Source: a bacterium
Lineage (GTDB): Bacteria > Patescibacteriota > Patescibacteriia > JAACEG01
Assembly (NCBI GenBank): GCA_030641665.1
Contig: DAOWHA010000050.1
Location: 2,632 to 66,631 of the forward strand
Length of the DNA: 64,000 nt
Reading direction: 5' to 3'
Both the position numbers and the translations under genes were made by a program. The notes beneath the pieces were generated by a model. That model made no database searches, was not told the DNA's origin, and saw only the letters and a list, made by a program, of their open reading frames with translations. This document shows, piece after piece, positions 35,099 to 57,825 of this stretch (positions within the stretch are counted from its first letter, which is position 1; each line of letters begins with the position of its first letter).

Positions 35099-35138
35099 AA
35101 AAACTAAAAATATCAATCTGCTACAATAAACATCAAAA

Positions 35139-35166
35139 AAGCGGGATTAAAATCCCGCTTTTTAAT
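35139..35166. terminator. Bidirectional rho-independent terminator between recG and the RloB gene
   Basis: aaagcgggatt-aaaa-tcccgcttttt. Confidence 0.6.
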
Positions 35167-35217
35167 ATTTTGTGCTTTTATGAAAGGACTCAATAAAAAT
35201 TTATTTTTTAAAACTCC

Positions 35218-35880: not shown

Positions 35881-35890
35881 ATTTTTTAAA

Positions 35891-37120: not shown

Positions 37121-37225
37121 AATTTTTGTAAATTATTTACTTAAACTTATTTATAACATACATCAAATATTAAAATAATGCAAGATTTTGCAAAAAATTT
37201 ACATTTTTTTATTATTTTTATTTTC

Positions 37226-38566: not shown

Positions 38567-38580
38567 AGGCAAATTTATTA

Positions 38581-38609
38581 AAAAAAACGGCGCGTCTGCG
38601 ATGCGCCGC
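38581..38609 (-). terminator. Rho-independent terminator after the 2096-aa gene
   Basis: Minus-strand sense cggcgcatcgcagacgcgccg followed by tttttttt. Confidence 0.55.
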
Positions 38610-38668
38610 AAAAATTTTTAACTAAATAAAAAATTACAAATATAAAACATTTTTCTTATAAATTTATA

Positions 38669-41600
38669 CTATTCTTCTATAAGAAAAAATATCTCTTTTA
38701 ATATATCGCCGTTCTCGCTTCTAATAACAGGATCAATGGATATCGCTGGAAAATCATCATCTGTTCCCTCGCCTCCGTCGTCTCGGCAATAGAACATATC
38801 AAAATAAGTTTCATTGCAAATTCCGGCAATATCGCAATCAGCTGTCGGATTATTTAAAATCCAATCTTCCCATGGCCAATAAGATATGTCAGGCCAAGGA
38901 TTCTCGCACATAAAAGTATTTATCGTCATCTTCTTTTTAGCGCTGCCATAATCAATAACGCCGTTAGATACGGCTTTAATATCTAAAATCGCTTTGCCGT
39001 TTATCGGATTAGCTGTTAAAACAGCGTTTCCCAGCGCGGTTGAAATCTGAAAAATATCATCGCTGTCTATCTCTGTCCATGTCCAGTCAAAATCGTTCGG
39101 ATTTAAAATATTGCCTGTGCTATCATCAACCGCGAAACTGTAAAACTGGTGCTGGTTTCCAGCAGCGCCTCCGTCTGAGTCGCGAATGCAATCATTCTTA
39201 CCAGCGCATAAAAATATATCAGAACTCATATCTTCATAAATCAAGTTTGGTAACGGCGAATCTCCGACTTCTACATCAACTCTGATATAATCAATATCGC
39301 AAATTATATCGCCTGTTGTAAAATTCCAACTATAATCTCCGTCCATCGCGATTCCATATTCGCTTAAAACGCCCTCGGCAACAGCATCTGTTAAGTCGGG
39401 GTCGCCTTTTATAATAACTCTATAAATAGTAGCTGGATTTAAATCTTCTTTTGGCGCGAAATATACTATTGTGCTGCTAGAATTTACAGTTAAACTCCCA
39501 TCAATAGCGCACCAAACTTCCCCTGCAAAACTATATAAAGTTGAAGTGGATGTATCTGTCGGACAAATTCCTTCAACCGTATATTCAGTGATTACTTCCA
39601 TATTATCTTCGTTCTTTATGCTGTTTCCTTTCATCTCTTGGTCAAACTCCGCGCTAATTAAAACATTGCGGCAGACATCTATATTTCCGCCAACAGGCAT
39701 TGTCGGTGGAATAACCACAGGGCGCGTACGGCAGCAAGTATCGTTTCCACATAAAAGTGGCGCGGAGCAGTCAGCGTCCTGTTCGCATCCGCAGCACCAG
39801 CCGCGGCTGTTTCCAACGCAAGCGTCAATATTAGGGGTGCATTCTAATGGAGCAAAGCATTGATCATTATTCATGTCGCAACAGCAAAAACAATTATTAT
39901 AATTAGGATCAACCCCGCCTGTCGGGCAAATCGCGCTGTCTTCCATGCATCCATATCCGATCATACAACTGCTAACGCCTTCTTGGCAGCAATTCCCTCC
40001 GCCTAAAATGCAAGGCACGCCAGGACCTGTCGGCTCAATAACAGTTATAATTCCACTCCCTGTAATTCCATCTGCTTGCGCGTTTATGTTAGTTGTTCCT
40101 AATGAAATAGCGTCAACCTGCTGATACGGATCTATATCGCCATTAGGCAATTCAATATCCTGTAAAGGAAATGCTAAATCGGCAATAAGTCCGTCATTGC
40201 TCCACCAGTTCCAATTATAATTTAACGGATTTATTGTTTGTCCGCTTGGATCGCAACTGTCTGGCGAAGACCTTGCTATAGATTTATAATCAACAACATC
40301 GCCAATATAAGCCGAGGCGTTTGTCGGAATTACTTCGACTGAACTCAGCGCGCATAAAGCGTCAGCTCCGCTTTTTGTTTTAAATATCCACGAATAAGAA
40401 TCGTTTCCGTTGGTTTCAATCGCGCCGTCGCCGCAAACAGCAAGCCCGCTTGATCCTTCATTTAAGCAAATATTTGAACAGCCATCGTTGTTTATTAAAT
40501 TGCCGTCGTCGCAATCTTCGCCGATTCCTATATCTCTGTCTCCGCAAACAGAACTTTTAACGCCCTCGCTTAAACAAATGCTTGAACAGCCATCGCTTGA
40601 AATAATATTATTATCATCGCAATCCTCGCCTAATTCAATCGCTCCATTTCCGCAAACCGCTGTGCCTGTTGATCCTTCCTTAAGGCATTTATCAGAACAT
40701 CCGTCGCCATTAGTCTGATTGCCATCGTCGCACGCTTCGCCGAATTCAAGAATGCTATTTCCGCAAACCGCTGTGCCTGTTGATCCTTCGTATAAACATT
40801 CAGATGAACAGCCGTCGCCGGAATTAGTATTATTGTCATCGCAATTTTCATAAATATCTAAACCTCCATTACCGCAAGTATTAGTAACCGATCCTGTGTT
40901 TAAACAATTAACACTACATCCAACGCTGTTAACTGGATAGCATTCCTGGCTCGGCTGCCCGCAATGGTCTGCGGCGCCATTCCAAAGGCAAGACGCGCCG
41001 CATAGCGCATCTCCGTCGCATTCTTCGCCAGAAGCCAAATTGCTATTTAATTTTATTAAATAATCTCCTAACACAGATTTAACCCCGTTTTCGCCTGTCT
41101 TAATTACTGCTCTGTAATAATTATCCTGCGTAAAATTGCCAACCGCAGAAAAGGTTGCCACGGATTCTCCCGTAAAATTATTCCAGAGATAAAATGGATT
41201 TGTAATATTAATAACTGCCGTCAACGGATTAAAAGGGCAAGACGAATCGCCGCCGCAATCATAAATTCTTATGCTTCCGTTAGCGCCGTTAGTTAAAGTG
41301 GCGGAATTAACCTCGCCGTCAAAGCGCAAGCCCATTTCCGCGTTAATGCAGACAGAATCGCATTCATACCAATGCTCAATAATGCTTAATCCTTGAAAAT
41401 CAACTTTTAATAGCGCTTTTCCTGTCTTATTATCCGGCATTGCATTAGCTCTAATGTAAGTATTGCCGTTTCCAATAGCGCTAACTGTTTCGTTGGTTGT
41501 CGCGCTTCCAGATACTGTGGCGATTAACGGATCATCGCTGCTCCAATTCATACTCTGCCCTAAAACATTAATTATAATACAAGGATTATCTTTAGATATT

Positions 41601-44600
41601 AATGTCGCGATAAAATCCTGAGTGGCAGACTCCATAACTAATTTAGCGGGATTAGGGTTAACAACAACTTCGCCTATCTCGCATTGAATAAGATCGTCGC
41701 GAGTTTTAAAATGCCAAACGAAATCGTCAATTAAAGGATTTCCAGCCGCAGTTGTTATCCCTCCGGCGCTTCCGATTAAAGTAATTTGATGCCAACTATT
41801 TTGATTTAACAGAACTGCCGGATGAAACTCAAAAGCTTCAATACCTATGCCAAAAGGATGATAAATAAATCCTCCTGCAATAGGAGCTCCGAGAATAATA
41901 CAAGTTGAATCAGCGCATTCCTGAACTAAAACATTCGCGTTATTAACGGTTGCTTGACTTACAACTTCTGAAAAACTGGCGCCGATAGCCGCGTTTACGC
42001 ATACATCATTTCCGCCCGCTCTGCCTATCCACGGCGTAGGGCTTGGCACTACTGGGTCGTACGGAAATTCAGTATCGCATTCTTCTCTCATAAAGTAGTC
42101 GCCTGTCGTAAAACTCCATGTGTATGTTGAAAAATTAGCCGTCGGACAAGCGCCTACATAACAGGCTCCGTCTGGACAGCAAACCTGCGTTGCGGAATCA
42201 GGGCAATTGGCATTATTTCCCGCGCAATCTCCGATCTCAAAAGGGATAGAATTAGAACTTCTGTTTCCGCTATTATCTAAAACATAAACAGGTCCGCTTT
42301 GCGCTTCTGTTGGAATTCCCGGAACCTGAGCGTTATTTATAAAAATGTCAGACCAGCCGCCGATAGCGCCAGCGGAAATATTCGGAAAGGCAGGTGTTCC
42401 GTCGTAAAATTCAATGTCTCCCAATAATGCGCCAAAATGCTCTCCGTAAATATCAACCAGTGTGTTAATCGGTCCGAAAACAGGAGCTATTTTGCACATT
42501 CCCGGCAATAGCTCGCAACCAGCGCCGACAACGCATACATCAAAAAATTTTCCGTTGCTGTCTTCTGTTCCGATAGTTACTATGACATCTCCGTCAGCAG
42601 CGCCTGCTGGGACTTTTACAATAATGCTGTTAGCGCTCCAATAATCAACTCCGCATTCGGAAGGAAAACTAAAATCACCCGCAGTTCCGTTAAAAGTTAC
42701 CGTATTTCCAGCGTGGCTATTTGTAAAACCGCTGCCGTAAATTGTCACATACTGACCTTCTGGACCTCTGTTCGGCTCTATATAATCAATGCGCGGACCT
42801 GTCGGCGAATTCGTTACTCTAAAATTCAAATAATTTCCATAATCTCCTCCTGCTGAAACAGCTCTAAATCCGACATCTCCTGATTGTATGTTCGGAATTT
42901 GGCAATCTATTTCTAAATCAGGGTTGGGAACTGAATTTAAGCCAGCAATATTACTGCTGTCATTTCCAAATTCAATAGTTGAACCGGCTAAAATATTCAA
43001 TCCGTGTCCGCGAATACTCTCTTCATAAAAACCGCAATCACTACCCAAGCAAGCAGACCCAGCTTCAATATTTTCCACTTTGCAAAGACCTGGACGAACT
43101 GTTCCGTCGTCAAAAAAATCTGGAATTATTGTTCCGCGCGCGTCATTAGTAGCGTCGCTATATCCGCTGTCAGCCGTAACTTCTATTGGTCCATTCACTA
43201 CGCCTATTGGAACAACTGCTATAATCTGTCTGTCTGTCCAAACGCTGATACATTGCGCGTTAACAGTATTTGCTAAATCCGCTGCTATTCCGTTGATCGT
43301 AATCTGAGAACTCGGACCGTAAGCGCCAAAATTTCTTCCCCAAATAGAAACCAAATTTCCAGCGGTTCCGACAGGTATGCCGTGAGGGCTGCAACTATCT
43401 GAATCATTAGGAGTTATACAATCAATAATCGGTCCGTCTTGGCAAAGACAGCATATAGTTGTTCCGAGTGGATAACCTGCCGCTTCACACTCTACTGTTG
43501 ATAAACCAAAATTTTGACAATCACAGATTCCTGAAGCGCATATACTGTCATCGCAATTGCATAACGGATCGCCTATGTCAATATCGCAGGCAGATCCAAC
43601 GCAAGCGGCGCAATCAACTCCTCCGCAATCAATTCCTATTTCATCGGCATTTAATATGCTGTCGCAGCAATGCGCCGCGCGCAGAGAAAAACTGCGAGTG
43701 TCATCGGTTGTATTACTGTCTAAATCAGCTGCTTCCGCAGTTAAAGAATAAATTATTCCCGCGCTATATCCTAAAGCGACTGTCGGCTGCCATATAGCAG
43801 TTCCGCTTGGCAAAATCCATGGTAGAGGATTACCGCACAATCCAGGTCCTGGGCAAGGAATAATAACTGTCGGGGTGCCTCCTAAAAAAGCCAAACTGCC
43901 ATTATTATCGCTGAATTCCACTTGGCTAACGCCAGAATCGTCTGTGGCTGATGATCCCAAATTATTAGGCGTATTTAAACAGACTTGATTTTGGCTAATT
44001 AGATTTACTGTTGGCGGCTGGCAATCTACTAAATTGTTAGTGAAAAATTGCGGATGCTCATTAACAGCGATATTGTCCTGTAAAGTCAATCCTCCTGCTG
44101 ACTGAACTCCGCCAGCGCCGATTATTACTTCTATGTCAATAGTAGAATTATCGTCAAAACATCTGTCCGCTCCGCAAGGATTAGCAGTACAGGTTCCAGT
44201 TAATGGGCTAAACTCAACTATTTTGCCGCTAACCGTAAAATTGCCAACAATTAAATTTAATGCTCCGCCAGCACATTGGGAATTTACTCCTGTCCCTTGA
44301 ATAATTATAGAAGCCGCGTCAACAGAAGCAGGATCAACATTTTTGTTAAAATATATTCTAATTACGGAATTCATCGGATTTGTTATTGTAAAAGGACAAT
44401 TTTCGTCCGGAGGCTGGATAGAAGTTACTATAAAACTTTCTGCGCCAGGGCATCCTGGACAAGTTAGCATTGGATCTGACTGCCAAGCGCAGACAAGCGG
44501 ATTAATGGTATTTTGGCATCTTAAGCATCCGCCTGCGGCGCAAGTTCCTAATTCAAGAATACAATCGCAGGGCGAACCAGCCATTCCTCCTCCGCCGCCA

Positions 44601-44959
44601 GTCGCTTCAGTTAAACTATTTAATATAAATTGTGTGATGGCAAAAGACGCTAAAATAATGAGAAGTCCTATAACAGCGCTGATTAAAACTCTCTTTGCTT
44701 TATTCACTTTCTCTGGAACTCCGCCTGAAGTCATCCATAAAAATCCGCCGTATAAAATTAAAGTAATAGCTAAAACGCCTAAAAAACCGAGCATGGCATT
44801 GATTACCGCAAAAACCATTGACTTTAGTCCGCGTGTTCCCAATTCTAAAATAGAAGAATATTCTAAGCCGTAAGTTTGGGCGGAAGCGGAAACAGCGATA
44901 CTGAAAACCGCTAAAAACGCAATGGCGAATAAAATAAATTTTCGTTTTTTAAACATCAT
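38669..44959 (-). CDS. Giant (2096 aa) secreted Cys-rich surface protein with VirB2/TrbC-like N-terminal anchor module, IPT/TIG domains and 5 tandem Myxococcus-type Cys-rich repeats
   Basis: Signal peptide ...SASA|QTYG, two TM with a GG loop. Repeats CGNGxxExGExCDDGNxxxxDGCSxxC x5 (DNA ~40420-40960). IPT-like segments (GPEGQYVTIYGSGF, FGPINTLVDIYGEHFG). Confidence 0.85.
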   Translation of the reverse strand: MMFKKRKFILFAIAFLAVFSIAVSASAQTYGLEYSSILELGTRGLKSMVFAVINAMLGFLGVLAITLILYGGFLWMTSGGVPEKVNKAKRVLISAVIGLLIILASFAITQFILNSLTEATGGGGGMAGSPCDCILELGTCAAGGCLRCQNTINPLVCAWQSDPMLTCPGCPGAESFIVTSIQPPDENCPFTITNPMNSVIRIYFNKNVDPASVDAASIIIQGTGVNSQCAGGALNLIVGNFTVSGKIVEFSPLTGTCTANPCGADRCFDDNSTIDIEVIIGAGGVQSAGGLTLQDNIAVNEHPQFFTNNLVDCQPPTVNLISQNQVCLNTPNNLGSSATDDSGVSQVEFSDNNGSLAFLGGTPTVIIPCPGPGLCGNPLPWILPSGTAIWQPTVALGYSAGIIYSLTAEAADLDSNTTDDTRSFSLRAAHCCDSILNADEIGIDCGGVDCAACVGSACDIDIGDPLCNCDDSICASGICDCQNFGLSTVECEAAGYPLGTTICCLCQDGPIIDCITPNDSDSCSPHGIPVGTAGNLVSIWGRNFGAYGPSSQITINGIAADLANTVNAQCISVWTDRQIIAVVPIGVVNGPIEVTADSGYSDATNDARGTIIPDFFDDGTVRPGLCKVENIEAGSACLGSDCGFYEESIRGHGLNILAGSTIEFGNDSSNIAGLNSVPNPDLEIDCQIPNIQSGDVGFRAVSAGGDYGNYLNFRVTNSPTGPRIDYIEPNRGPEGQYVTIYGSGFTNSHAGNTVTFNGTAGDFSFPSECGVDYWSANSIIVKVPAGAADGDVIVTIGTEDSNGKFFDVCVVGAGCELLPGMCKIAPVFGPINTLVDIYGEHFGALLGDIEFYDGTPAFPNISAGAIGGWSDIFINNAQVPGIPTEAQSGPVYVLDNSGNRSSNSIPFEIGDCAGNNANCPDSATQVCCPDGACYVGACPTANFSTYTWSFTTGDYFMREECDTEFPYDPVVPSPTPWIGRAGGNDVCVNAAIGASFSEVVSQATVNNANVLVQECADSTCIILGAPIAGGFIYHPFGIGIEAFEFHPAVLLNQNSWHQITLIGSAGGITTAAGNPLIDDFVWHFKTRDDLIQCEIGEVVVNPNPAKLVMESATQDFIATLISKDNPCIIINVLGQSMNWSSDDPLIATVSGSATTNETVSAIGNGNTYIRANAMPDNKTGKALLKVDFQGLSIIEHWYECDSVCINAEMGLRFDGEVNSATLTNGANGSIRIYDCGGDSSCPFNPLTAVINITNPFYLWNNFTGESVATFSAVGNFTQDNYYRAVIKTGENGVKSVLGDYLIKLNSNLASGEECDGDALCGASCLWNGAADHCGQPSQECYPVNSVGCSVNCLNTGSVTNTCGNGGLDIYENCDDNNTNSGDGCSSECLYEGSTGTAVCGNSILEFGEACDDGNQTNGDGCSDKCLKEGSTGTAVCGNGAIELGEDCDDNNIISSDGCSSICLSEGVKSSVCGDRDIGIGEDCDDGNLINNDGCSNICLNEGSSGLAVCGDGAIETNGNDSYSWIFKTKSGADALCALSSVEVIPTNASAYIGDVVDYKSIARSSPDSCDPSGQTINPLNYNWNWWSNDGLIADLAFPLQDIELPNGDIDPYQQVDAISLGTTNINAQADGITGSGIITVIEPTGPGVPCILGGGNCCQEGVSSCMIGYGCMEDSAICPTGGVDPNYNNCFCCCDMNNDQCFAPLECTPNIDACVGNSRGWCCGCEQDADCSAPLLCGNDTCCRTRPVVIPPTMPVGGNIDVCRNVLISAEFDQEMKGNSIKNEDNMEVITEYTVEGICPTDTSTSTLYSFAGEVWCAIDGSLTVNSSSTIVYFAPKEDLNPATIYRVIIKGDPDLTDAVAEGVLSEYGIAMDGDYSWNFTTGDIICDIDYIRVDVEVGDSPLPNLIYEDMSSDIFLCAGKNDCIRDSDGGAAGNQHQFYSFAVDDSTGNILNPNDFDWTWTEIDSDDIFQISTALGNAVLTANPINGKAILDIKAVSNGVIDYGSAKKKMTINTFMCENPWPDISYWPWEDWILNNPTADCDIAGICNETYFDMFYCRDDGGEGTDDDFPAISIDPVIRSENGDILKEIFFLIEE

Positions 44960-45013
44960 ATTTTAAAATTTGCAATTCTTTAATATTCAATTTTACTAAC
45001 TTCAACCACATTC

Positions 45014-45156
45014 TGTCTTTGCGAGGAGTTGAATGAGCGCAGCGAATGAGATGCGACGAAGCAATCTTATTACTGAGCGGACAAATCTATAATCATAATT
45101 CTTTCTGCTTAAGTAATGGGATTGCTTCGCTCCGTTGCACTCCGCTCGCAAAGACA
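45014..45156. repeat. Nested palindromic element, copy 9
   Basis: TGTCTTTGCGAGGAGTTGAATGAGCGCAGCGAATGAGATGCGACGAAGCAATCTTATTACTGAGCGGACAAATCT...GTAATGGGATTGCTTCGC...CTCGCAAAGACA. Confidence 0.9.
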
Positions 45157-45203
45157 GTATGTGAAAAAAATTTAGATTTATTTATAAAATTTTAAATTAT
45201 TTA

Positions 45204-46874
45204 TTAAGGGCACGCACACCATGCTCCGTCGCAGCAACATGGTCCTAAAGTAGGAACGCCAGCGCATCCTGGTCCTTCGCTCGGATACAAGCAATTCTGA
45301 TAATTGTTTTTCACTCCTGCTGTTGCCTGGCTTTGATAAGCAGTTGCTGTTTGAAATTTAGAATGATTAATACTTGCCTGCGTCGCGCCGCCGATATCCT
45401 CAGCTGTTATCCAATACCCGACTGTTCCGCCTAAAATTCCAATATTGCTGGTATTCAGACTGCTATACATCATTATATCTGAAAACAAAATCTGAATCGG
45501 ATCTTTTAGTGTAACGCCAACTTCATTTACAAGCGGGCTAACACTAATAATTGTCGGAGATGTTAAATTAATATTATTAGTCGTGTTAAACTGCCAAATA
45601 TAATCATCAGTCGGCGACTCTTCTGATATTCCGTCATTATCGCCGTCAAAAGAATTGCTTGCCATATCAACTATGCCGTCAAAAGGGTACGCAGCTTCAG
45701 GACAAATAAGGCAGGTCGCGGCCTTAATCGTTGTGGTTATATTTGCCAATGCTGGCAGACAATAGATTGTCTCTCCGCAAGAATTCGTTCCGCAAGGTGT
45801 TCCTAAAAATTCAACTGTTCTATATTGGTTGGAAATAGACAAAAATCCTGCGACTGGCGCGCCGTCATTGACTAAAATATTTGCGTCTAATATTGACAAC
45901 GGGTCAATAGCTTCTGAAAAATGCATCTGCACAACTATATTGCGATCGTAAGTTCCGCTAGCTGCGGGCTGAACGATTTTAATATAAGGCGGCGTAACAT
46001 CCAAAAAAGTGCTTATTTCAAATGACCAATCATAACTGCCTAACGCTCCAAAAGCTGAACTTCCGTCTGATTTATTTATATTATTCGTGAGTTCAACAGT
46101 ATGCCAAATATTTTCAACAGGGCTGCCAAGCGGATTTATCGGCTTAAAGCGGAAAGTTCTGTCGTCGGCTGTTTTCGCCGCAAAAACTTCCGTAATATAA
46201 GGACCTGAAATAATTTCTCCTTGTTTGGCGATTTTTACATTAGGATTGCCACTTCCGTCTAAGACGATAGTGTCATACTCTCCAGCGTCAAACTCTCCAT
46301 TGCCGTTAATGTCAACCCAATCGCCAAAAATTGTGCTGCCATTCGTGTCGTCAATCAAAGTGCTGACTTGCATCGCTTCCTTAAAGGTAACAACGATTGA
46401 TGTGTTGCGGGCAATATTAAGCGAACCTGGCGCTGGATAAACGCTCTCAATAATTCCAGAGCCTAAGGCGCCGCCTCCGCCGCCACCACCACCGCCGCCG
46501 CCGCCAGTTGCGCCAGTTGCGCCAGTTAAACTCTTCATTATAAACTGCGTGATAGCAAAAGACGCTAAAATAATTAAAAGTCCGATCGCGCCGCTTATTA
46601 AAATCTTTTTCGCTTTTTCGATTTTCTCAGAAGCCCCTCCTGATGTCATCCAAACAAACCCTCCATATAAAATTATAACTATCGCCAATATTCCCAGAAA
46701 TCCTAAAACAATATTAATAATCGTAAAAACCATTGATTTTAATCCGCGTGTTCCCAGTCCTAAAATTGAGGAATATTCTAATCCGTAAGTTTGCGCGGAC
46801 GCGGAAACAGCAATGCTGAAAATCGCTAAAAACGCAATGGCGAATAAAATAAATTTTTGTTTTTTAAATCTCAT
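45204..46874 (-). CDS. 556-aa secreted protein, paralogous N-terminal anchor module + poly-Gly linker + Ig-like region + C-terminal Cys knot
   Basis: First ~115 aa ~85% identical to the 2096-aa protein (MRFKKQKFILFAIAFLAIFSIAVSASAQTYGLEYSSILGLGTRGLKSMVF...). Then TGATGATGGGGGGGGGGGG. C-terminus PCCCDGAWCACP. Confidence 0.8.
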   Translation of the reverse strand: MRFKKQKFILFAIAFLAIFSIAVSASAQTYGLEYSSILGLGTRGLKSMVFTIINIVLGFLGILAIVIILYGGFVWMTSGGASEKIEKAKKILISGAIGLLIILASFAITQFIMKSLTGATGATGGGGGGGGGGGGALGSGIIESVYPAPGSLNIARNTSIVVTFKEAMQVSTLIDDTNGSTIFGDWVDINGNGEFDAGEYDTIVLDGSGNPNVKIAKQGEIISGPYITEVFAAKTADDRTFRFKPINPLGSPVENIWHTVELTNNINKSDGSSAFGALGSYDWSFEISTFLDVTPPYIKIVQPAASGTYDRNIVVQMHFSEAIDPLSILDANILVNDGAPVAGFLSISNQYRTVEFLGTPCGTNSCGETIYCLPALANITTTIKAATCLICPEAAYPFDGIVDMASNSFDGDNDGISEESPTDDYIWQFNTTNNINLTSPTIISVSPLVNEVGVTLKDPIQILFSDIMMYSSLNTSNIGILGGTVGYWITAEDIGGATQASINHSKFQTATAYQSQATAGVKNNYQNCLYPSEGPGCAGVPTLGPCCCDGAWCACP

Positions 46875-46955
46875 AAATGCTTAAAATTTGCAATTACCAA
46901 TTTGGCAATGAATTTGCAATTTTCTAATTTTCAATTTTACTAACTTTAACCATTC

Positions 46956-47131
46956 TGTCTTTGCGAGGAGCGAATGGAGCGATAGCGAAATGAGTAACGA
47001 AGCAATCCCATTACTGAGCGAACAAATCTATAATTATAATTTGTCTATGCTTTTGTATAGTTTGCACGGTTAGTAATGGTATTGCTTCGTCGCGCCTCTC
47101 TCGCTTCGCTCGTTCAGCTCCTCGCAAAGAC
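46956..47131. repeat. Nested palindromic element, copy 10 (long variant)
   Basis: TGTCTTTGCGAGGAGCGAATGGAGCGATAGCGAAATGAGTAACGAAGCAATCCCATTACTGAGCGAACAAATCT...ATTGCTTCGTCGCGCCTCTCTCGCTTCGCTCGTTCAGCTCCTCGCAAAGACA. Confidence 0.9.
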
Positions 47132-47234
47132 ATCTTAATTATAAAATGTATCTAAAAAATAATTGGTAATTAAAAATTTGAAAATTTAATAATTGATTGA
47201 TAATTGCAAATTGGTAATTAAAAATTTATTTTTC

Positions 47235-50200: not shown

Positions 50201-53200
50201 CTATATTATAATAAATTCCTGTTTTTAAAATTTTAACAAATTCAGACGGAACCAAATTTCCGCTAACGCTCAAATCGCAATTAATCGCCGAATCTTTGCC
50301 AGTATAAAACCGTCCGCTAAACTGCTGATCGCTTTCATCAGAAACAATCTGCGCTCCGTTAATAGGGGTAATAATATCCATTGAGTCGTCAGGCGATATT
50401 AAATCAATCGGGTTGCCAACTAAACCGTCAACGCAATTTTCTAATATAATCGCGCTGCCGGCGCCGTTAGAATTGCTTAACACTGTATAAACGGTGTCTT
50501 GCTCTAACCGAACAGGAACATTTGTAATATAATCGCCGGCTGCAACGCTCCAACCGTCAGGAACTCCGTCAACATCGACATCTTGAGCAAAATCGCCGTT
50601 AAAAACGATATTTTTTGAAATTGAACTTATCGGATCAATATATTCCGCGCAGCCGTCAATTTCAGGCGGGCAAATCGCTGTCCAATTATTGCAATAGCCT
50701 CCCGGACAATCAGCATCAGTCTCGCAGATTCCGCCGCCTCCGCCCAGACAGGTTTTAGCCGCGTACTCAACGCCGATATCAGAATATGCCAAAGGGCAAT
50801 TCGGCGCTCCGGAAGTAGTATTAGCAAGATACCAACCAGCATCTGTCTGTCCCCCAACTAATTTATATTCACAAATTTTAGCGTCTCCCTTGATTCTCTG
50901 TGATACAGGATCTTTAAAATAAGAATCGCCCATAACATCTGAACTAAATTTTCCGCAGCCGACATTATCAAAAAGACAGAGCGTATCGTTATATTCATCA
51001 GGGTCGTTAATTTTATAAACAGTTTCATATTGATACAGATCATCTCTGTCGTCGGCAAGATTTTCAGTTGTTTTATTCATATTATACCTGTAATTTGCAG
51101 TTCCTAAAGCAGAGCATCCTTTCTCTTTTGATTTGCAAATTTTCCCCTTATCATTAACTAGCGTGTCAATTTTGTCGCCAAAAACAGTGATTTCAGATAT
51201 ATCGCCCAAATTAAATATTTCTTCTAAATAACTATGAGAATTAAATGTGTCAATCAGCGCTTCGCATCCTGCGACATCTTCGCCGCATAAGCGATTAAAT
51301 GATTTTAAATATACTGTCTGTTTTTCAACCTCGCTCTCATACTCTTCGCATCCAAGCATATATTGCGGAGCGTAAGCGCCGTTATGGTCTTGATCGCATA
51401 CTGATGAAACATTCCAAAAATCAGGTCTGATTAAAAACAGCTTGTCGCGCTCCTCTTTTAAGATAATATTGTCAATATAGGAAATGCCGCTAAAACCGCT
51501 GATTCTTAATGTTTCTAAAATATTATCGCCCGGCGCACTCATTGGATCGTCGCTGCTCATATCCCAGCCGACTAAAACAGGACCTAATGAATATTTCTGC
51601 CACTCCGGACCTAAATTAACCGAACCGCTCGCGAACTCTTCTCCTGCCGGCGCGCTGGAAAATTCAGCCGTCAGGCTTCCTGCTCCTTTTGCCCAAAAAG
51701 AGAGGAAATAAGTTTTTTGATGTCCGAGCAAAGATTTGTAAAGGCAGGTCTGTTCAGTGTTTTGCGCGTAACAGACTGTTTCATTATTAACTTCGCATTC
51801 GCATCCTTCGTCTAAAGCGCAAACAAATCCTAAATCGCAATGCGCTTTTAAGGAATAGTTCATGTCGTCGCCCAAATTGATTTTCAAACTATGCCCACCT
51901 CTAATCAGAGACTCGCTGCTAAGAGCTCCGACCCCACAATTATTAACCGCCTGTTCAAATCCGTCGTCAATAACCTTGCGGATATTATTGCTTGTGTTTC
52001 CCCTATATTCATAACAATCGTTTTTTGACGCGGGGCAAACAATCCCTTGCTCGGACAAAGCTTCATAAATGCATTCGTTGTTAGCGCTCCATTCGCCCCA
52101 ATCCCAACTGCCGGCAGAATGGACAACGCAGTCTGCCTGTGATGATTTTGTCTTGCGGTAAGGATGGCAGTCATCAGAGCAACTAACTGTATTTTTATAA
52201 TGCCGATAAGAGATAATATTTGCTTCGCTGTAAAATTCATTGCATTCCGGATTTCTGATCGCGTCGTCATAATTATTACAGTCTCCAAAAATATCAGCGG
52301 CGTCGGCTATATTATATATATTGTCAGGATAGCCGTTGCTATCAGCGTCTAACAGCATATGAGCGACAAGCTGGAATCCTGTCTCTTCTGAGCCGATCCA
52401 TGTGTAAAACGACGCGCAATCACCGTTAATTCCATGGCATGGCCGCAGATAAGAAAAATATTCAATCGCTTCGCCGCCTTCTTCTAATTTGTCTAAATTC
52501 GTAAATTCAGAGCATCCCGCGTATTGCGCCGAGCATTTTTCCTCGTTGTTCGGAATTAAAAACTCTGGAAATTTTTCGCTCTCAAAAAAAGTCGCTTCCT
52601 GCTTGTAGGCGTTATAGCCGTTGCAAGTCTCGGGGCAAAAATCATCAGACCGAACCACTCCCGGAATGCTCGGATCGCCATTCGTTGGTTCGTATAAATC
52701 GCATCCGACATCGTCTGGTCGGCATTCTAATGCAAAGTTAGCGCATTGCTCGGATCCGCCTTCCGCGCATCGCTCAATATCCGTTCGCCAAAAATGCCCT
52801 GCTGTTTCACATCCTGACTGATCGTCAAAAGCATCGTTATATACGGTATATAATTCGCAATTATAATAATCAGGAGCTTTTTTTAAATAGAGCGAATTGC
52901 TGTTATGATAATCTTCATAACTAAACAGATATCCGTCTCCAGCTACTTCTTCTAATTGGACAGAATCAATTAAGCACCCAAGCGGAATTCCTCCTGCCGC
53001 GCCGCTCACGCTGATTGTCAATTCCGTGTCAAAAGCGTCAATTGTTCCGTCGGTTGGAAAAGTGTAATTAACATTAAACCGCTCCCAGTCATCGTTGTTG
53101 CCAGATATTAATTCAATCGGCGATCCTGCTATGGCTGGAATATAGAATTGAAAATTAGTTCCGACACAATTTTGCGCGTAAAAAGAAAAACTGAACTTTC

Positions 53201-55874
53201 TGCCTTCTAAATTATATCCTGTGTCAATAACTTTTGTCAGATTAGCCGCTGCGCCGTTTAAAGACCTAAAAGCTGTGGCGCCGATAAAACTCGCGCTGGT
53301 TGCTTCTCCTGCCGCGGACGCCCATTCTATAAAAGTATCGGCTATGCTGTCATCAATAATGTCTGTTTCTAAAATATCAGTAAAACTTGAGTTAGTAATC
53401 AGATTAGTCCCCAAATTCGGCTTTGTCCTAATATACTCGCGGCACCCCTCGCTGGAACTGGAACAAATTTCCGCTTTTTTGTTTAGATAAATGTCATTAT
53501 TAACATTAGGAACAAGCTCTTGATTTATCGTAAGCCGCGCTTTTGATCCGTCTAAAACGCATTCTATCCCTTTATGCGGAACAACGCACGATTCAATAAT
53601 GTCGCCGTCTTGGTCAATATCATTTACATCCGCAATTTCGCATCCGTCTGCATTGGCGCAATAATTATCTAAATTCAAATCCCACCCTTGGCTTAAGCAA
53701 GCCCAAGCGTCGTCCCCCGCGTTTCTTGAAGCGCAATGCCATTCGCATCCGGCGCTGTCTTCACTGCATCCGCCGTACTCCGCAGTATTTTTCAGATAAA
53801 AAACTTCGTTTCCTTTCGGAGACGCGAAAGACTGGCAAGTATTATAATAACTGTCGCATTCATCTCCTTGAAAATCCCAAACGCGCTTCTCCTCTGAACA
53901 GTATCCGTAAAAAAGGCAATTTCCTTTTGCATCTTCTTTTAAGCAAGACTGTTCGTCGGCGCAATATCCGTCTCTCATAATATTAACGCGCGGCTTCTGG
54001 TCATACTCGTCGTCAAAGTCGCCATCGCTGTCAATGTCAATTCCTTGTGAAACTTCTTCGCTGATTATCTTCTCTCCTATTCCTTCAAGTTCGCAAAAAA
54101 GTTCCGGCGCTTTCAGCACCCAGCTCGGATCAATCAGTTTATAAAAAGGCGAGGCAGGATCGTCAAACCCGCTTATTACTTCCTGAATATTATAAATCCT
54201 GAAATCAGAGGTTTGATTGCCAATATGCCTTGCGGCTAATTCCCAGCCGACCGGGATTATTCTGTATTTTCTTAAAATTACCAAATTTCTATAAGAGTAT
54301 CCTTGATTATACAGCGGCTCAATATCTTTTGAAGTAAATCCGAACGGAAAATTGCCGCTTATATATCCTTGATTAAGAGCTTCCTGAACCGTAAGTTCCT
54401 GCTGGACAGCGTCGGCGAACTGCTGCGTAATTACGCATTCTGTCGGTCCGGCGTTTTCAGGATCAGGGCACATTAACAATTTTGACAAAATTGAATAAGC
54501 TCCGCCTGTTTTATAATCCGGCTGAAAAATTTTTGAATATTTCGCTTTGGCGGCTTTAGCGCCCTGGCTGACCCTGGCTGCGGATATTCTGCTTGCCGAA
54601 CTGTCAACACCGCTCAGCCAGTTATAATCTGAATCTTCGTCATCTCCGCGCAGTTTAGCCATCCCTTCCATCACCCATTTGTTGATCAACTTGCTCATTA
54701 AAGTATTAGCGAAAGTCGCGACTGCGTCGGCTATAATGTCGCCCGTGAAAACTTCTTCAAACTTCGTCCCTTCGTCAATCGGCTTGGTTCCCATTTTATA
54801 GACCACATTACCAGGCGTTAAAATATTTCCTGCGGCATCTGTGATAGCTTTCCAGCCGCCGCCCTCTTTCCGCGCTTTTTCAGCAGTATCAATTCCAGCC
54901 TTTCTTTTTTCTAAAAAATCACTATGCATTGTTAAAGCGATTCCGATGTCGTTCTCTTCCGGATTCCAATATCCTTGAAAGCGAGTTAAAAAATCAGGAT
55001 CGTTCACAAACTCATCCCAATTTCGCGAAGCGCGGCTGTATGTGCACTTCGGCTTTTTCGGCCTCTGTATTTCAGCTAAATCAGCTGTTAATCTCATCTT
55101 AACATTAAAATCCGGCTCGCATAAAAATTGCACTATGGATCCTGCCGCCCCCTTGCTATATCTTGAGCCAGCAGATCCAGCGGTAGGACCGCCAAAATCT
55201 TTCTTACTTAAATCATCTGTCTGTTTTTCGTAAATTTCAAGGCATTTAATCGAATGATCTCCTTCGCATACGCTCCAACAATTCTCAATGATCATTTTTT
55301 CTGAATTTGGCAAAAGATTAAAATTGTCTGGTATTTCTCCGCACTTTTTTTCACATCCGCTAACAAAATCTTTCGAGCATTCTATAAAATCATCGTTAGT
55401 TTTTGAATAAGCATCTTCTTCTGAGGAATGCCTGTCCCACTGGCTCGCCGCTGCCATAATAGCTGTTCCTGCGGCTTCATCAGCCGCGTCCAGCATATAT
55501 TCCTCCCAATTAGAAGTAAAAATCATCGGCTTCTGACCCTTGTCTCCGCTCGCTACCCAAGTCGCGCTTTCTAAAGCTAAATTGCGCAAAAAATTATGCA
55601 GCGCTGCCTTAAAGCCAACCGCCGCCCAATGCTTGCCGAGTTTCTCTTCTGCTACTTCCCATTTTTCCCAAGCCCATTTTAACGCATCGCTTACTCTTGA
55701 CCATATATTTGATAATGTATTTGGGATAGAAGAGACATCAGTCGTTACTTCAACGGGAATCGCCCGAGCGTTTTTTACTATCAATAAATTAAATCCTACT
55801 GAATGAAAAATAAACAGAAACAGAATCATTAAAATAACTAATCTGTTTTTTTTCTTTTTTGTTTTGTTAAACAT
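47235..55874 (-). CDS. Giant (2879 aa) secreted Cys-rich protein with scattered Ca-binding DxDxDG loops (hypothetical surface protein)
   Basis: Signal-anchor KKKKNRLVILMILFLFIFHSVGF...ARA. About 5% Cys throughout. Loops DIDSDGDFDDE and DIDQDGDIIE. Continuous ORF uninterrupted on minus strand. No catalytic motif seen. Confidence 0.8.
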   Translation of the reverse strand: MFNKTKKKKNRLVILMILFLFIFHSVGFNLLIVKNARAIPVEVTTDVSSIPNTLSNIWSRVSDALKWAWEKWEVAEEKLGKHWAAVGFKAALHNFLRNLALESATWVASGDKGQKPMIFTSNWEEYMLDAADEAAGTAIMAAASQWDRHSSEEDAYSKTNDDFIECSKDFVSGCEKKCGEIPDNFNLLPNSEKMIIENCWSVCEGDHSIKCLEIYEKQTDDLSKKDFGGPTAGSAGSRYSKGAAGSIVQFLCEPDFNVKMRLTADLAEIQRPKKPKCTYSRASRNWDEFVNDPDFLTRFQGYWNPEENDIGIALTMHSDFLEKRKAGIDTAEKARKEGGGWKAITDAAGNILTPGNVVYKMGTKPIDEGTKFEEVFTGDIIADAVATFANTLMSKLINKWVMEGMAKLRGDDEDSDYNWLSGVDSSASRISAARVSQGAKAAKAKYSKIFQPDYKTGGAYSILSKLLMCPDPENAGPTECVITQQFADAVQQELTVQEALNQGYISGNFPFGFTSKDIEPLYNQGYSYRNLVILRKYRIIPVGWELAARHIGNQTSDFRIYNIQEVISGFDDPASPFYKLIDPSWVLKAPELFCELEGIGEKIISEEVSQGIDIDSDGDFDDEYDQKPRVNIMRDGYCADEQSCLKEDAKGNCLFYGYCSEEKRVWDFQGDECDSYYNTCQSFASPKGNEVFYLKNTAEYGGCSEDSAGCEWHCASRNAGDDAWACLSQGWDLNLDNYCANADGCEIADVNDIDQDGDIIESCVVPHKGIECVLDGSKARLTINQELVPNVNNDIYLNKKAEICSSSSEGCREYIRTKPNLGTNLITNSSFTDILETDIIDDSIADTFIEWASAAGEATSASFIGATAFRSLNGAAANLTKVIDTGYNLEGRKFSFSFYAQNCVGTNFQFYIPAIAGSPIELISGNNDDWERFNVNYTFPTDGTIDAFDTELTISVSGAAGGIPLGCLIDSVQLEEVAGDGYLFSYEDYHNSNSLYLKKAPDYYNCELYTVYNDAFDDQSGCETAGHFWRTDIERCAEGGSEQCANFALECRPDDVGCDLYEPTNGDPSIPGVVRSDDFCPETCNGYNAYKQEATFFESEKFPEFLIPNNEEKCSAQYAGCSEFTNLDKLEEGGEAIEYFSYLRPCHGINGDCASFYTWIGSEETGFQLVAHMLLDADSNGYPDNIYNIADAADIFGDCNNYDDAIRNPECNEFYSEANIISYRHYKNTVSCSDDCHPYRKTKSSQADCVVHSAGSWDWGEWSANNECIYEALSEQGIVCPASKNDCYEYRGNTSNNIRKVIDDGFEQAVNNCGVGALSSESLIRGGHSLKINLGDDMNYSLKAHCDLGFVCALDEGCECEVNNETVCYAQNTEQTCLYKSLLGHQKTYFLSFWAKGAGSLTAEFSSAPAGEEFASGSVNLGPEWQKYSLGPVLVGWDMSSDDPMSAPGDNILETLRISGFSGISYIDNIILKEERDKLFLIRPDFWNVSSVCDQDHNGAYAPQYMLGCEEYESEVEKQTVYLKSFNRLCGEDVAGCEALIDTFNSHSYLEEIFNLGDISEITVFGDKIDTLVNDKGKICKSKEKGCSALGTANYRYNMNKTTENLADDRDDLYQYETVYKINDPDEYNDTLCLFDNVGCGKFSSDVMGDSYFKDPVSQRIKGDAKICEYKLVGGQTDAGWYLANTTSGAPNCPLAYSDIGVEYAAKTCLGGGGGICETDADCPGGYCNNWTAICPPEIDGCAEYIDPISSISKNIVFNGDFAQDVDVDGVPDGWSVAAGDYITNVPVRLEQDTVYTVLSNSNGAGSAIILENCVDGLVGNPIDLISPDDSMDIITPINGAQIVSDESDQQFSGRFYTGKDSAINCDLSVSGNLVPSEFVKILKTGIYYNIDSSIDKAECNGLVDYEKGCVLFNRREISSGLAIEDIIYDADRNDKNINTPQSCLIGGIPDGTCDSNLLVKVKPTRTCGEWLYCKGTVNVTGKDGAIKRKCTDIGACNSMNEQGKCDGFVVSEPINQTANATVSLDDIRDRAGYTKIGKQGVAEGYYPLHTMSQESVQIKIPNNNFELIENIDYPVGWLYEGALFEDEFSVISDPVSAQGIGLEYMSPEGRSFLSVGADYAAVTETISLIGTEEGNRYFVSAWVNTLNLKASNAEIQLREMDAFGNMIRDYHSILSVPRSDYWQFKTAAFDVDLSTKRIVLRLVAPGSAPDGNFYIDEIRIKPALKIGDTDVYSPQTCRSYPKQDALSCEYFSDSGIKNIGKFGYCLEYDRFPGNPRQCLLWWPVDKLSSEGIEETGRVLGYDGKFPVFYCSDMDANFDFVENRTSEIISDLDDYCCDTNLLTAFADWMLAGLPSLIINGAYYGDLTNFLNGGCGSRMIVYNDNDAGMQTCNSTNYKVEVRIYSDGNCGAFNTDTEYNLRFTCIPKNDATHIPISGNWYIYDGDLVLNEPNPDPQVMIYDYTESRLVDPMDYRLRCDKIYQTVSHFDIGENKAWTDRVRDGTDYRTGELGSFDYYHTSEDKPFGSMIPPEGVNPIYWDGNDNTDILDPILFRENLSEGAIAGLPYGCSDGSTQGNTCDVIGRCSGHPELICAHPYPSGDWNHHDDNLLLHCPCNDAHTICETCEPISNLGNISDNNAVEILKRIFAKSYGTWEWDHASSQYRDCGIDIACVLNDWNPPDNICAGTPAARPAYSNTTGLCAGGDCFAGCGSNPAGATCDFCGVPPIVENIKVNGNISGNYNFSISNDVNLEFNSIIDYNQLPLATYWIDWGDGTDASPNISYVSNGIQDRPDEDDPHSESRQYSYYEMLLNDPSSVSIECGAAGATLFGDLSVVCGAFPCCATQPRIRLKDNWDWCNGDTTRAVCNQWEYYNGYIIASEF

Positions 55875-55969
55875 AAATATTTTAATTTTGAATTTCCAAT
55901 TTTAAATCTATTAAGTTATCATAAAAAATTCTTCTTCAATTATATCTTTGCGAGAAGTTTTTCCCTTAT

Positions 55970-56111
55970 TGTCTTTGCGAGCGGGGTGCAACGGAGCGAA
56001 GCAATCTCATTACTGAGCGGACAAATCTATAATTATAATTTGTCTATCTATATAATAGGATTGCTTCGTCGCGCCTCTCTCGCTTCGCTCGTTCAGCTCC
56101 TCGCAAAGACA
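55970..56111. repeat. Nested palindromic element, copy 11
   Basis: TGTCTTTGCGAGCGGGGTGCAACGGAGCGAAGCAATCTCATTACTGAGCGGACAAATCT...GATTGCTTCGTCGCGCCTCTCTCGCTTCGCTCGTTCAGCTCCTCGCAAAGACA. An extra 13-nt tctttgcgagaag fragment lies at 55943. Confidence 0.9.
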
Positions 56112-56194
56112 TGGTGGGAAGCAAACAAATTTTTGAAATCAAAATTTTTCTTTTTAATTAAATCTATTTTCTTTTTTCTTGAACCGCCTTTAAT

Positions 56195-56398
56195 CTATTT
56201 TTCTCTTAAAATCGCTTCTTCTATTTTATCAAAAACTTCATAGTAAACTAATTTGTCAACATTATATTTTTTAGTAAATCCTTTAATTGTTTTATTTTTA
56301 TGCTCTTTAATTCTTCTATTTAAATCATTAGTTACACCCGTATAAATAACTGTATTATTTTGATTGCAGAGTATGTATATAAAATATTGCTTTTGCAT
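56195..56398 (-). CDS. GIY-YIG nuclease-domain small protein (second paralogue)
   Basis: QYFIYILCNQNNTVIYTGVTNDLNRRIKEHKN. Flanked by repeat copy 11 and half-copy 12. Its start codon lies inside the half-copy. Confidence 0.6.
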   Translation of the reverse strand: MQKQYFIYILCNQNNTVIYTGVTNDLNRRIKEHKNKTIKGFTKKYNVDKLVYYEVFDKIEEAILREK

Positions 56399-56473
56399 AA
56401 TTTGCGCGGTTTTTAATGAGATTGCTTCGTCATTTCGTTCCGCTATCGCTCCACTTCATTTCTCGCAAAGACA
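56393..56473. repeat. Half-copy (right arm only) of the nested palindromic element, copy 12
   Basis: ttttgcataatttgcgcggtttttaatgaGATTGCTTCGTCatttcgttccgctatcgctccacttcattTCTCGCAAAGACA. Confidence 0.8.
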
Positions 56474-56640
56474 GGGTGTAAAATTTTTAAATTTAATTAA
56501 AATTTTGTCCATTTTTTCATTTAAACTTTTATTGCTTTCTATTAAAATATCAAATTTAGAGTTTATGTCTTTTAAGGCAACTAAAAGGTCATTTATGGTT
56601 TTTAATTCAATTCTTGCCTTTGCCATAAATTTTTTTAATT

Positions 56641-57297
56641 TTAATTTCCCATTTCCGCGATGGTCTCGTAATACATTTTTATCAAATCCGCGTCGGAAAT
56701 TTTTTTCATCTCTTCAAACGGTATCCCTGCCTGTAAAAGCATCTGCCGAATCTCTTCAACGCTCGCGCCGCCGCTTAAAACCTTTTCCGCTCCGCCCGTT
56801 CCGCTGCTGGCGGAACTATTTTGATTATCCGTCAATGGCTGCAATTGATTTAAAAAATCGCTATAATTTTCTAAATCGCTTATGTCAACCGCGCTATCTT
56901 CCAACTCACTATCATTTAATACCCCACACTCCTGCCCGCGCGGACAAAGCGGATTTTCTTTATCGTTAATCTCTTGCGCGTCAGAATAGCCGTCACTGTC
57001 CGTATCTTCTAAATAAGGGCTTGTGTTGTAAATATTTATTTCATCATAATCAGATAATCCATCCTGATCAGTATCGCTGTTCTGCTGATTTAATATCTCT
57101 TGCAGCTCCTGCTCTTCGTATCCGGTAAAATTTTTATTATCAATTCCATTAATATTAAAAGAACTATTTATAGTCGCGTTAAAACGCAAAAATCCTAAAA
57201 TCAAAGCGCCCACCCCTATGGCTAATAAAAAAATTTCTACGGAGCGGCTGTTCTTTGTTTGATTTTCCTGATTATCTTTTTCCATATCATTATACAA
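56641..57297 (-). CDS. Membrane-anchored secreted protein with a dockerin-like pair of Ca-binding loops
   Basis: N-terminal TM IFLLAIGVGALILGF. DTDQDGLSDYDE and DTDSDGYSDAQE loops 24 aa apart (duplicated DxDxDGxxDxxE, dockerin/TSP3-like). Confidence 0.55.
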   Translation of the reverse strand: MYNDMEKDNQENQTKNSRSVEIFLLAIGVGALILGFLRFNATINSSFNINGIDNKNFTGYEEQELQEILNQQNSDTDQDGLSDYDEINIYNTSPYLEDTDSDGYSDAQEINDKENPLCPRGQECGVLNDSELEDSAVDISDLENYSDFLNQLQPLTDNQNSSASSGTGGAEKVLSGGASVEEIRQMLLQAGIPFEEMKKISDADLIKMYYETIAEMGN

Positions 57298-57339
57298 TAA
57301 AAATAAAAAAAGGTAAATTTTAAAACTGAAAATTAAAAA

Positions 57340-57825
57340 CTATTTAATATCCATTATTTTGTCGGTTTTAATTTTTGCTTCCTGCTCAAGAAAAAATTTG
57401 TTCACTCCTGGGATCGTTTTAAGCCACTCTTTGATTAGTTTTATAATTTTTTTAACTTTTACCTTTGTCTTTTTTAAAATAAAAAAAATCTTAGCCGCTG
57501 TTTCTTCGCCTTTCTTTTTAAATTCAATCTGTCTGCGCGCTGATAAATTTACATAGATCTCTTCCATTCCTTCAGATAAAATATTTTCTATTTTTTCCAC
57601 TTCTAAAGATTTTTGCAAAGGATGCGGCTGGGCGCTTGCGTCTGATTTTTTAGGCGCGATTTTTTTTTGTTCTATTTTTTTCTGTCTTCCAGCGGCGGTT
57701 TGCTCTTTTTTAAAATCTTCGCCAAGCGTTTTTTCGCCCTCTTTTTTTTCAACCGCTAAATCCGCTTTTTCTTTGCCAAAATCATTTGTCCGTTTTTCAA
57801 GTATATTTTTTAAATTATCAAGCAT
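57340..57825 (-). CDS. Lys/Glu-rich hypothetical protein, first gene of the minus-strand surface-protein cluster
   Basis: 161 aa, highly charged, coiled-coil-like. No motif. Confidence 0.4.
   Translation of the reverse strand: MLDNLKNILEKRTNDFGKEKADLAVEKKEGEKTLGEDFKKEQTAAGRQKKIEQKKIAPKKSDASAQPHPLQKSLEVEKIENILSEGMEEIYVNLSARRQIEFKKKGEETAAKIFFILKKTKVKVKKIIKLIKEWLKTIPGVNKFFLEQEAKIKTDKIMDIK

Follow-up and report, generated by a model that had tools for sequence, protein, structure and literature searches.

Two neighbouring genes on a Patescibacterial contig begin with almost the same pilin-like sequence and then continue into unrelated, probably extracellular domains, one of them close to two thousand residues long, which raises the question of what a pilin-like module is doing at the head of such large proteins. 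The window, the whole stretch of DNA analysed here, comprises 64,000 nucleotides (nt) of contig DAOWHA010000050.1 (assembly GCA_030641665.1; positions 2,632 to 66,631, forward strand). The locus consists of five minus-strand open reading frames (ORFs) between positions 38669 and 57825, called genes A to E, and the coordinates given for them in an original prediction proved correct (Table 1). That prediction had described a VirB2/TrbC-like anchor at the start of the A and B proteins. On sequence comparison, this module is a genuine domain of the T4SS_pilin family, found in the type IV secretion systems (T4SSs) of monoderm bacteria and Patescibacteria, and is related to canonical VirB2 only remotely, if at all. 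The locus is one ordinary member of a widespread, apparently unstudied cassette.

The first 115 residues of A and B are 81% identical, in agreement with the shared N-terminal module of about this length that had been proposed; no third copy was detected in the window by tblastn, and past residue 115 the two proteins have no BLASTP similarity. Hydropathy and AlphaFold2 models support each of the predicted parts, namely a signal peptide at approximately residues 4-27 ending in ASA↓Q, a first hydrophobic helix at ~45-76, a second at ~82-119, a basic loop between them (~77-90, with the sequence TSGG..EK..KAK and four Lys/Arg residues), and a Gly linker behind helix 2 that is disordered in the models. 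By the positive-inside rule, the four basic residues place the loop in the cytoplasm and the ectodomain outside the cell, which fits the immunoglobulin (Ig)-like, disulfide-rich content of the ectodomains. This topology, a hairpin with an external ectodomain, is a computational prediction, from which surface display of the A and B ectodomains is inferred. The leaders of VirB2 and TraA are long; the expectation of a long VirB2-type signal peptide did not hold, as the leader here is an ordinary one of 27 amino acids (aa). No class III signal peptide (G↓F/M-T-L-I/L-E) was found in the first 60 residues of A to E, and without this motif, with a type I leader (ASA↓Q), the proteins do not qualify as type IV pilins or pseudopilins such as PilA and ComGC.

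The family assignment rests principally on PF18895 (T4SS_pilin), which matches the isolated modules of A and B with 30.2 and 31.6 bits, respectively, against a gathering cut-off of 26.6; with the full-length proteins, B scores 27.9 bits and A falls slightly under the cut-off at 25.4. The NCBIfam model NF045849 (Mbov_0395 family) matches A with 29.5 bits (E = 4e-7) and B with 31.9 bits (E = 8e-8), below its equivalog cut-off of 40, and hhalign alignment to a Firmicute pilin-like conjugal transfer protein of the Mbov_0395 family gives a probability of 97.8% over 73 columns (E = 1e-12). This same family member, carried on a Pontibacillus megaplasmid, was the single match among plasmids in a tblastn search (E = 4e-6), and its gene lies 4 kb upstream of genes for a VirB4-like ATPase and a large cell-wall hydrolase. 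The TrbC/VirB2 family itself, PF04956, matches the two modules with only 19.2 and 19.3 bits (cut-off 27.9; E ~1.4e-3) over profile positions 6-96 of 98, with a precomputed match in four homologues of B. The Agrobacterium VirB2 sequence aligns in register, ...GF.WMTSGG pairing with ...GISWMFGR, at an hhalign probability of 24%. The pilin-like character of the anchor is therefore upheld by PF18895 above its cut-off, whereas VirB2/TrbC membership in the strict sense remains sub-threshold at 19 bits. Aligned with 9 free and 16 array pilins, the module shares the pilin-invariant residues G72, M76, T77, G80, G98 and L99, together with the GG.xWM(T/S)xGG motif and the layout of two helices and a basic loop. 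PF18895 proteins are typically small and free-standing (~110-150 aa), unlike A and B, in which the domain occupies only residues 1-115 of proteins of 2096 and 556 aa. A profile of the module gave no match to PDB sequences at E <= 10.

The same arrangement recurs in other genomes. Conservation was assessed in 80 species-representative Patescibacteria loci, each encoding a full-length relative of B; all counts are based on these, since the 554 stretches confirmed by tblastn may include matches to the pilin module alone. The cassette was defined by a protein of ~600 aa with a pilin module and Big_5 domains, whose gene is directly succeeded, in the same orientation, by the gene of a pilin-headed giant that has an orthologous ectodomain. 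A second module-bearing ORF lies downstream of the B-like gene on the same strand in 76 of the 80 loci, with a median gap of 3 nt; the complete chromosomes CP129476.1 and OZ246408.1 are among these. Complete giants (n = 40) measure 1434-3452 aa, with a median of 3079 aa, and 33 more run off the end of their locus. The ectodomain of A aligns over most of its length with all 67 of the other giants of at least 1200 aa, which indicates that each ectodomain type is conserved between genomes; the original picture, in which a constant anchor precedes variable ectodomains, is therefore misleading. An exhaustive profile search found the module in 78,597 cluster representatives, the best matches including several single-module proteins of 571-2747 aa, whose contigs carry a pilin and Big_5 gene followed by a pilin-headed giant, as in the window. 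For B, 551 homologous clusters were found; all 120 of those listed carry PF13205, and nearly all also PF18895. Where homologues bear a name, it is 'Ig-like domain-containing protein' or 'hypothetical'; their sources are Falkow-, Komeili-, Uhr- and Buchananbacteria, Candidatus Falkowbacteria being the closest among the matches listed. The claim of an undescribed architecture stands insofar as no description was found in the literature searched, but the architecture is not unique, with the cassette in 76 of 80 loci and the Pfam calls public.

In the window, B is followed by A in the order of the cassette, with a 244-nt gap holding a palindromic element, a relatively short A and a different neighbourhood as its peculiarities. 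Upstream of the cassette in 22 other loci, lepB occurs in 18, hisS in 19 and yqeY in 16, with lytR and engA as further neighbours. In 18 of these 22 loci (from L012-L091; also in L003, L005 and L006), the gene for signal peptidase I (Peptidase_S26) precedes the B-like gene at a distance of ~1-4 kb, and one is also found near the eight-pilin array in L006. This proximity could be a functional link, the pilin leader ending in AxA, or housekeeping synteny.

The two module copies in the window are less alike at the DNA level than had been thought. Their 5′ ends had been called nearly identical; the measured identity is 79% over 360 nt, falling from 87-92% across the first 120 nt to 67-73% in the middle part. 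The numbers of nonsynonymous (dN) and synonymous (dS) substitutions per site are 0.12 and 0.91 (dN/dS ~0.13), values that indicate an old duplication under purifying selection, so that A and B are old paralogues in their modules and not products of a recent duplication. By region, dS is 0.42 for codons 1-47 and 1.56 for codons 48-120, and a younger conversion tract is present at the 5′ ends, reaching ~60 nt upstream. An artefact of assembly or annotation, from collapsed or duplicated reads or mis-joined long ORFs, has to be considered for a metagenome source, the more so as the single further assembly compared in its DNA (L001) shows 100% identity and may stem from the same data. The copies differ, however, at 21% of nucleotides in a coding-type pattern, and the gene order is kept in 76 of 80 loci of other species, with 551 clusters of B; this divergence and the conservation across genomes exclude an artefact with virtual certainty.

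Comparison between genomes indicates what keeps the two modules alike. In all of the first four genomes compared, each module has its closest relative in its partner from the same genome (78, 65, 75 and 58% identity), and orthologous modules of different genomes are 45-56% identical. Over 80 genomes, median module identity is 62% within a genome versus 49% between genomes, a signal specific to B-type or A-type modules is practically absent, and in 23-25 genomes the nearest among the 159 other modules is the partner. The leader region, including the signal peptide, has the same within-genome bias. One locus, L063 (B-like gene 9971-11656, A-like gene 11809-20625), contains a tract of ~250 nt at 90-100% nucleotide identity that drops sharply to ~50% on either side, as expected from gene conversion, and L084, L024 and L030 hold module tracts of up to 90-98% identity; these tracts (~100-250 nt, with sharp edges) look like very recent conversion events. 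Recurrent gene conversion between the adjacent 5′ ends, visible at the DNA level, keeps the modules alike in each genome. Of the two processes originally suggested, recent duplication or gene conversion, it is conversion that holds, as a long-running and family-wide process without a recent event in the window. The pair offers a clean natural case of concerted evolution confined to one domain of otherwise unrelated proteins.

Behind the module, the two proteins are built from different extracellular parts. The counts of Cys residues agree with the description of A and C as Cys-rich giants, at 115 in A (5.5%) and 117 in C (4.1%); B has 12 (2.2%). By Pfam, the A ectodomain (~1970 aa) contains three Big_5 domains, two TIG domains and four DUF4215/myxo_disulf repeats, the last of these being Cys-rich and acidic and matched by NCBIfam TIGR02232 (E = 5e-30). 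P0051, encoded in a public assembly, is identical to A. The AlphaFold2 model of B (mean predicted local distance difference test score, pLDDT, 85.4) places three beta-sandwich domains behind the linker, which Foldseek likens to tandem Ig stalks such as L,D-transpeptidase Ig domains, the S-layer protein SbsC, cadherins and titin; the C-terminus bears the motif CCCDGAWCACP. No LPXTG-like sorting motif was found in A to E, leaving sortase anchoring without its signal. From such Ig-like, TIG and Cys-rich ectodomains, a role of A and B in attachment is plausible, and to that extent so is the proposed attachment apparatus for an episymbiotic lifestyle.

The closest free relative of the module is a short pilin of 118 aa (P0002), with 60-66% identity in the core and the same mature N-terminus, QTYGLEYSSI, as the modules of A and B. 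Its gene is the third in an array of eight genes for short PF18895 pilins found on three contigs. All three contigs carry the window's palindromic element, their GC content is 0.34-0.35 compared with 0.36 for the window, and one is from the same assembly as the public copy of this locus; the array therefore very probably belongs to the same genome or a sister genome. Many database proteins contain modules in tandem within one ORF, with 17 module stretches in P0012 (1775 aa) and 2-17 modules per ORF in P0012, P0027, P0049, P0060, P0091 and others; these may represent genuine polyproteins, or else pilin arrays that gene calling has fused (e.g., if stop codons are read through under an alternative genetic code).

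Free pilins end 5-10 residues past helix 2, exactly where the junction of A and B with their ectodomains falls, and the Gly run at this junction is flexible and disordered. This would suit a pro-protein, in which the linker is cut, the ectodomain is released as a secreted or wall-bound protein, and an ordinary short pilin is left behind; in RP4 TrbC, C-terminal trimming precedes cyclisation. Such processing is nevertheless improbable, as the only conserved protease gene of the cassette is that of the upstream signal peptidase I, the linkers of A and B have no conserved cleavage motif in common, and a pro-domain of 2000 aa for a pilin of 90 aa would be uneconomical given eight pilin genes.

VirB2-like pilin arrays are widespread in Patescibacteria (PMC12102498; also PMC10633639, PMC12857230, PMC10936435), and Southlakia epibionticum, the sole Patescibacterium tested genetically, requires its T4SS with the VirB2-like pilins to grow as an epibiont (PMC10633639). 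No PrgB-type or other T4SS-associated adhesin was detected in the phylum (PMC12102498). The favoured explanation for the locus, although it is given slightly less than an even chance, is that A and B may be built into a VirB2-like pilus as adhesin-bearing minor or tip subunits. The proteins would be exported by the Sec pathway and cut by signal peptidase I after ASA, as their sequence suggests, and the helices would enter the membrane as a hairpin, the basic loop lying in the cytoplasm and the mature N-terminus and ectodomain outside, as the positive-inside rule and the domain types predict. The Gly linker would connect this hairpin to the three-Ig stalk in B or to the Cys-rich TIG/Big_5 ectodomain in A. 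B and A would then enter the pilin pathway, a step proposed because all conserved pilin residues are kept and one array pilin is the most similar, and would join, nucleate or cap a VirB2-like pilus and contact the host cell. This explanation is preferred since the pilin hallmarks are under purifying selection, one free pilin is tracked, and no T4SS adhesin is known in the phylum.

Several observations weigh against a pilus. The likeness to canonical VirB2 is weak (19 bits; hhalign 24%), and in fold searches the two-helix hairpin is indistinguishable from other helical proteins. In 22 other loci, the 137 neighbours lying up to 5.5 kb from the cassette include no gene for VirB4, VirB6 or a coupling protein, and a Pfam scan of 29 larger ORFs of the window detected no family of VirB4, VirB6 or the type IV coupling protein; the window has no unassigned ORF of VirB4 size either, one flank of the locus having only 6 kb. 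To our knowledge, a pilus of such pilins has never been observed in this class of bacteria, and we know of no precedent among T4SS pili for an ectodomain of 2000-3400 aa on a pilus subunit. Gene conversion could, moreover, be a neutral result of adjacency and not reflect a shared assembly interface.

A static anchor is nearly as likely, the chief reason being that linkage of the cassette to T4SS genes was never seen: the pilin domain would have been co-opted as a two-helix anchor in the cytoplasmic membrane, from which the ectodomains cross the wall as ordinary surface adhesins or stalks, without ever being polymerised and independently of a T4SS. Besides the missing linkage, in the window and in 22 other loci alike, the very large ectodomains fit this explanation, as does the AlphaFold2 model of B, which resembles a membrane hairpin continued by a linker and then an Ig stalk. 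Extracellular proteins that are large and Cys-rich are, in addition, common in Candidate Phyla Radiation (CPR) bacteria, with no pilus required (PMC4736985). A generic anchor, however, need not retain the pilin loop motif and the invariant glycines, nor remain nearest to one particular array pilin, and the strong purifying selection on the module also speaks against it. It further leaves unexplained the short free pilin gene that stands between the B-like and A-like genes in two genomes (L057 8753-9250, 165 aa; L060 11884-12273, 129 aa).

If A and B are instead pilus subunits, they might be the first natural pilin-adhesin fusions of a T4SS-type pilus, forming a priming or tip complex or a sparse decoration on a filament of array pilins; this more specific proposal is the more doubtful of the two and would sooner prove wrong than right. 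Were it true, monoderm ultra-small bacteria without VirB5 and PrgB-type adhesins would possess a host-recognition device within the filament itself, conversion would hold both polymerisation interfaces in step with one another as well as with the major pilin, and the device would be conserved across the class ABY1 and related Patescibacteria. The cassette is a concrete, testable candidate for how Patescibacteria hold on to their hosts, in which a pilin domain serves as a display module beyond its use as a filament subunit.

Table 1. Positions of the genes, pilin modules and palindromic elements of the locus and its surroundings, numbered from the first nucleotide of the window.
Feature	Position	Strand	Description
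radA	37226..38611	-	Pfam assignment; immediately downstream of A; context gene only
gene A	38669..44959	-	2096-aa ORF: pilin module, Gly linker and Cys-rich ectodomain
pilin module of A	44615..44959	-	residues 1-115; PF18895, AlphaFold2, hydropathy and charge
palindromic element between B and A	45013..45157		approximate ends
gene B	45204..46874	-	556-aa ORF: pilin module, poly-Gly linker, three Ig-like (Big_5) domains
pilin module of B	46530..46874	-	residues 1-115; PF18895 match
palindromic element between C and B	46955..47132		approximate ends
gene C	47235..55874	-	2879-aa Cys-rich ORF; N-terminal signal/anchor, without pilin module
palindromic element between D and C	55940..56112		approximate ends; further partial copy 56412-56474
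gene D	56641..57297	-	218 aa; one transmembrane segment and bacterial TSP3 (Ca-binding) repeats, PF18884
gene E	57340..57825	-	161-aa Lys/Glu-rich protein
other element copies	4685-4897, 11783-11835, 18609-18814, 19401-19581, 22303-22460, 23445-23639		intergenic
other element copies	25456-25628, 26051-26231, 27133-27293, 62159-62324		intergenic

The remaining genes of the locus, which had been placed in one unit with A and B, do not belong to the cassette: C and D form a separate pair and E has no detectable relatives. The product of C has no Pfam or NCBIfam match, its 100% identical deposited protein is a 'hypothetical protein [Candidatus Parcubacteria bacterium]', and its 24 homologues in Patescibacteria, some with CBM_4_9, are 2500-3800 aa long. 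C was considered as a cassette member and rejected, since it lacks the module, C-like genes are absent from all 80 cassette loci, and elsewhere the gene is paired with that of a TSP3 protein. In two other genomes, a gene for a TSP3 protein (~210 aa) and a glycosyltransferase cluster precede the C-like gene, with no B or A adjacent, making D followed by C a second conserved pair that probably lies beside B and A by chance in this lineage. D, which had been described as dockerin-like, carries bacterial TSP3 Ca-binding repeats (PF18884, E = 4e-7), in keeping with that description. In 15 or more other loci, the stretch immediately downstream of the A-like giant encodes a TSP3-repeat protein, and such a protein follows the giant in 10 of the 22 scanned neighbourhoods. 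E has no match in Pfam or NCBIfam and no homologue in related loci.

The palindromic elements form a family of imperfect palindromes of ~130-190 nt with the consensus TGTCTTTGCGAGGAG...GACGAAGCAATC...GATTGCTTCGTC...CTCCTCGCAAAGACA. The copy between B and A forms a hairpin of ~145 nt (-66 kcal/mol, z = -7.2) followed by a promoter-like tail of ~50 nt in common with the region upstream of B, and the outer arm of the element contains a -35-like AAGACA 16-18 nt ahead of TAAAAT. Contigs L009-L011 carry the element as well. An Rfam scan returned only tRNAs, so that the element matches no described RNA family. The giants had been thought to be bracketed by copies of this element, and copies do lie between A and B, B and C, and C and D; the association is, however, unspecific, as the element turns up throughout the window, in at least 14 intergenic sites, and even ATP-synthase genes have it between them.

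Outside the locus, the window is the ordinary chromosome of a small-genome bacterium, with genes for an F-type ATP synthase, PilB/PilC, DprA, RecG, Ddl, MiaA/MiaB and glycosyltransferases, and tRNAs. A foreign origin of the locus, which has a higher GC content, was considered and rejected, as the third-position GC (GC3) of A, B and C (0.34-0.40) is within the housekeeping range of 0.25-0.40; the excess sits in second positions (GC2) and thus reflects amino-acid composition. One end of the locus is flanked by recG and radA (32909-38611), and for the class ABY1, comF, recG and radA are reported to be common in the surroundings of virB4 (PMC12102498). Between recG and radA, two overlapping ORFs (35218-37120, minus strand) encode an AAA_21 protein (AbiEii-like ATPase, 409 aa) and a RloB-like protein (247 aa), a pair that, beside the surface-protein locus, looks like a small inserted defence or toxin-type system. 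Type IV pilus genes at 5880-8697 (minus strand) encode a PilB-like ATPase (T2SSE and MshEN) and a PilC-like platform protein (T2SSF), indicating that the organism also has a type IV pilus system, distinct from the T4SS-type pilins. A 251-aa ORF at 30100-30855 (minus strand), without a Pfam match, contains three tandem repeats of 114 nt (30121-30400). Clusters of tRNA genes with repeated flanks are located at 30900-31850 and 62800-63560, including two tRNAs of 87 nt, and a weak 117-nt tRNA match at 31727-31843 (30.4 bits) may hold an intron or insertion. Short repeats resembling TCCGATATC stand beside several of the tRNAs, with further copies at 12049, 24986 and 34240. The TTG codon called as the start of recG (32909) falls inside a tRNA (32894-32967), and the gene therefore probably begins further downstream.

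Among the known systems closest to A and B are the VirB2-like arrays of Patescibacteria such as Southlakia epibionticum and Nanosynbacter lyticus TM7x (PMC10633639, PMC12102498), with which they share PF18895, the signal peptide and hairpin, and the phylum. The array pilins, however, are free-standing proteins of 110-150 aa, often encoded near virB4 and on average ~25% identical to one another, whereas in A and B the pilin is the N-terminal domain of a far longer protein, in two copies that are 81% identical, homogenised by conversion and unlinked to a T4SS. The Mbov_0395 family (NF045849), from integrative and conjugative elements and plasmids of monoderm bacteria, is clearly homologous to the module (hhalign 97.8%), but its members are small and have no ectodomain, and A and B fall below the equivalog cut-off. 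With VirB2 of the Ti plasmid, TrbC of RP4 and TraA of F, the module has in common a leader, two hydrophobic helices, a basic loop and both termini outside; it differs in its sub-threshold match, short leader and monoderm host, and head-to-tail cyclisation would be impossible with the ectodomain attached. The Cys-rich CPR proteins described from Peregrinibacteria likewise have a signal peptide, a length of one to three thousand aa, a high Cys content and a proposed role in attachment, and show weak similarity to Myxococcus Cys-rich repeats, four of which are carried by A; pilins are not mentioned in that paper (PMC4736985). Pilin-ectodomain fusions, the B-to-A cassette and its concerted evolution were not found described in the literature searched, most subscription journals being outside its reach. 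Among T4SS pili, whose tip adhesin is VirB5, we know of no natural pilin-adhesin fusion. In FimH and PapG of chaperone-usher pili, in the tip adhesins of sortase pili, and in PilY1 with the type IV minor pilins, a polymerisation module places a receptor-binding ectodomain on a filament; the design logic of A and B is like that of these systems, whose folds and assembly machines are unrelated.

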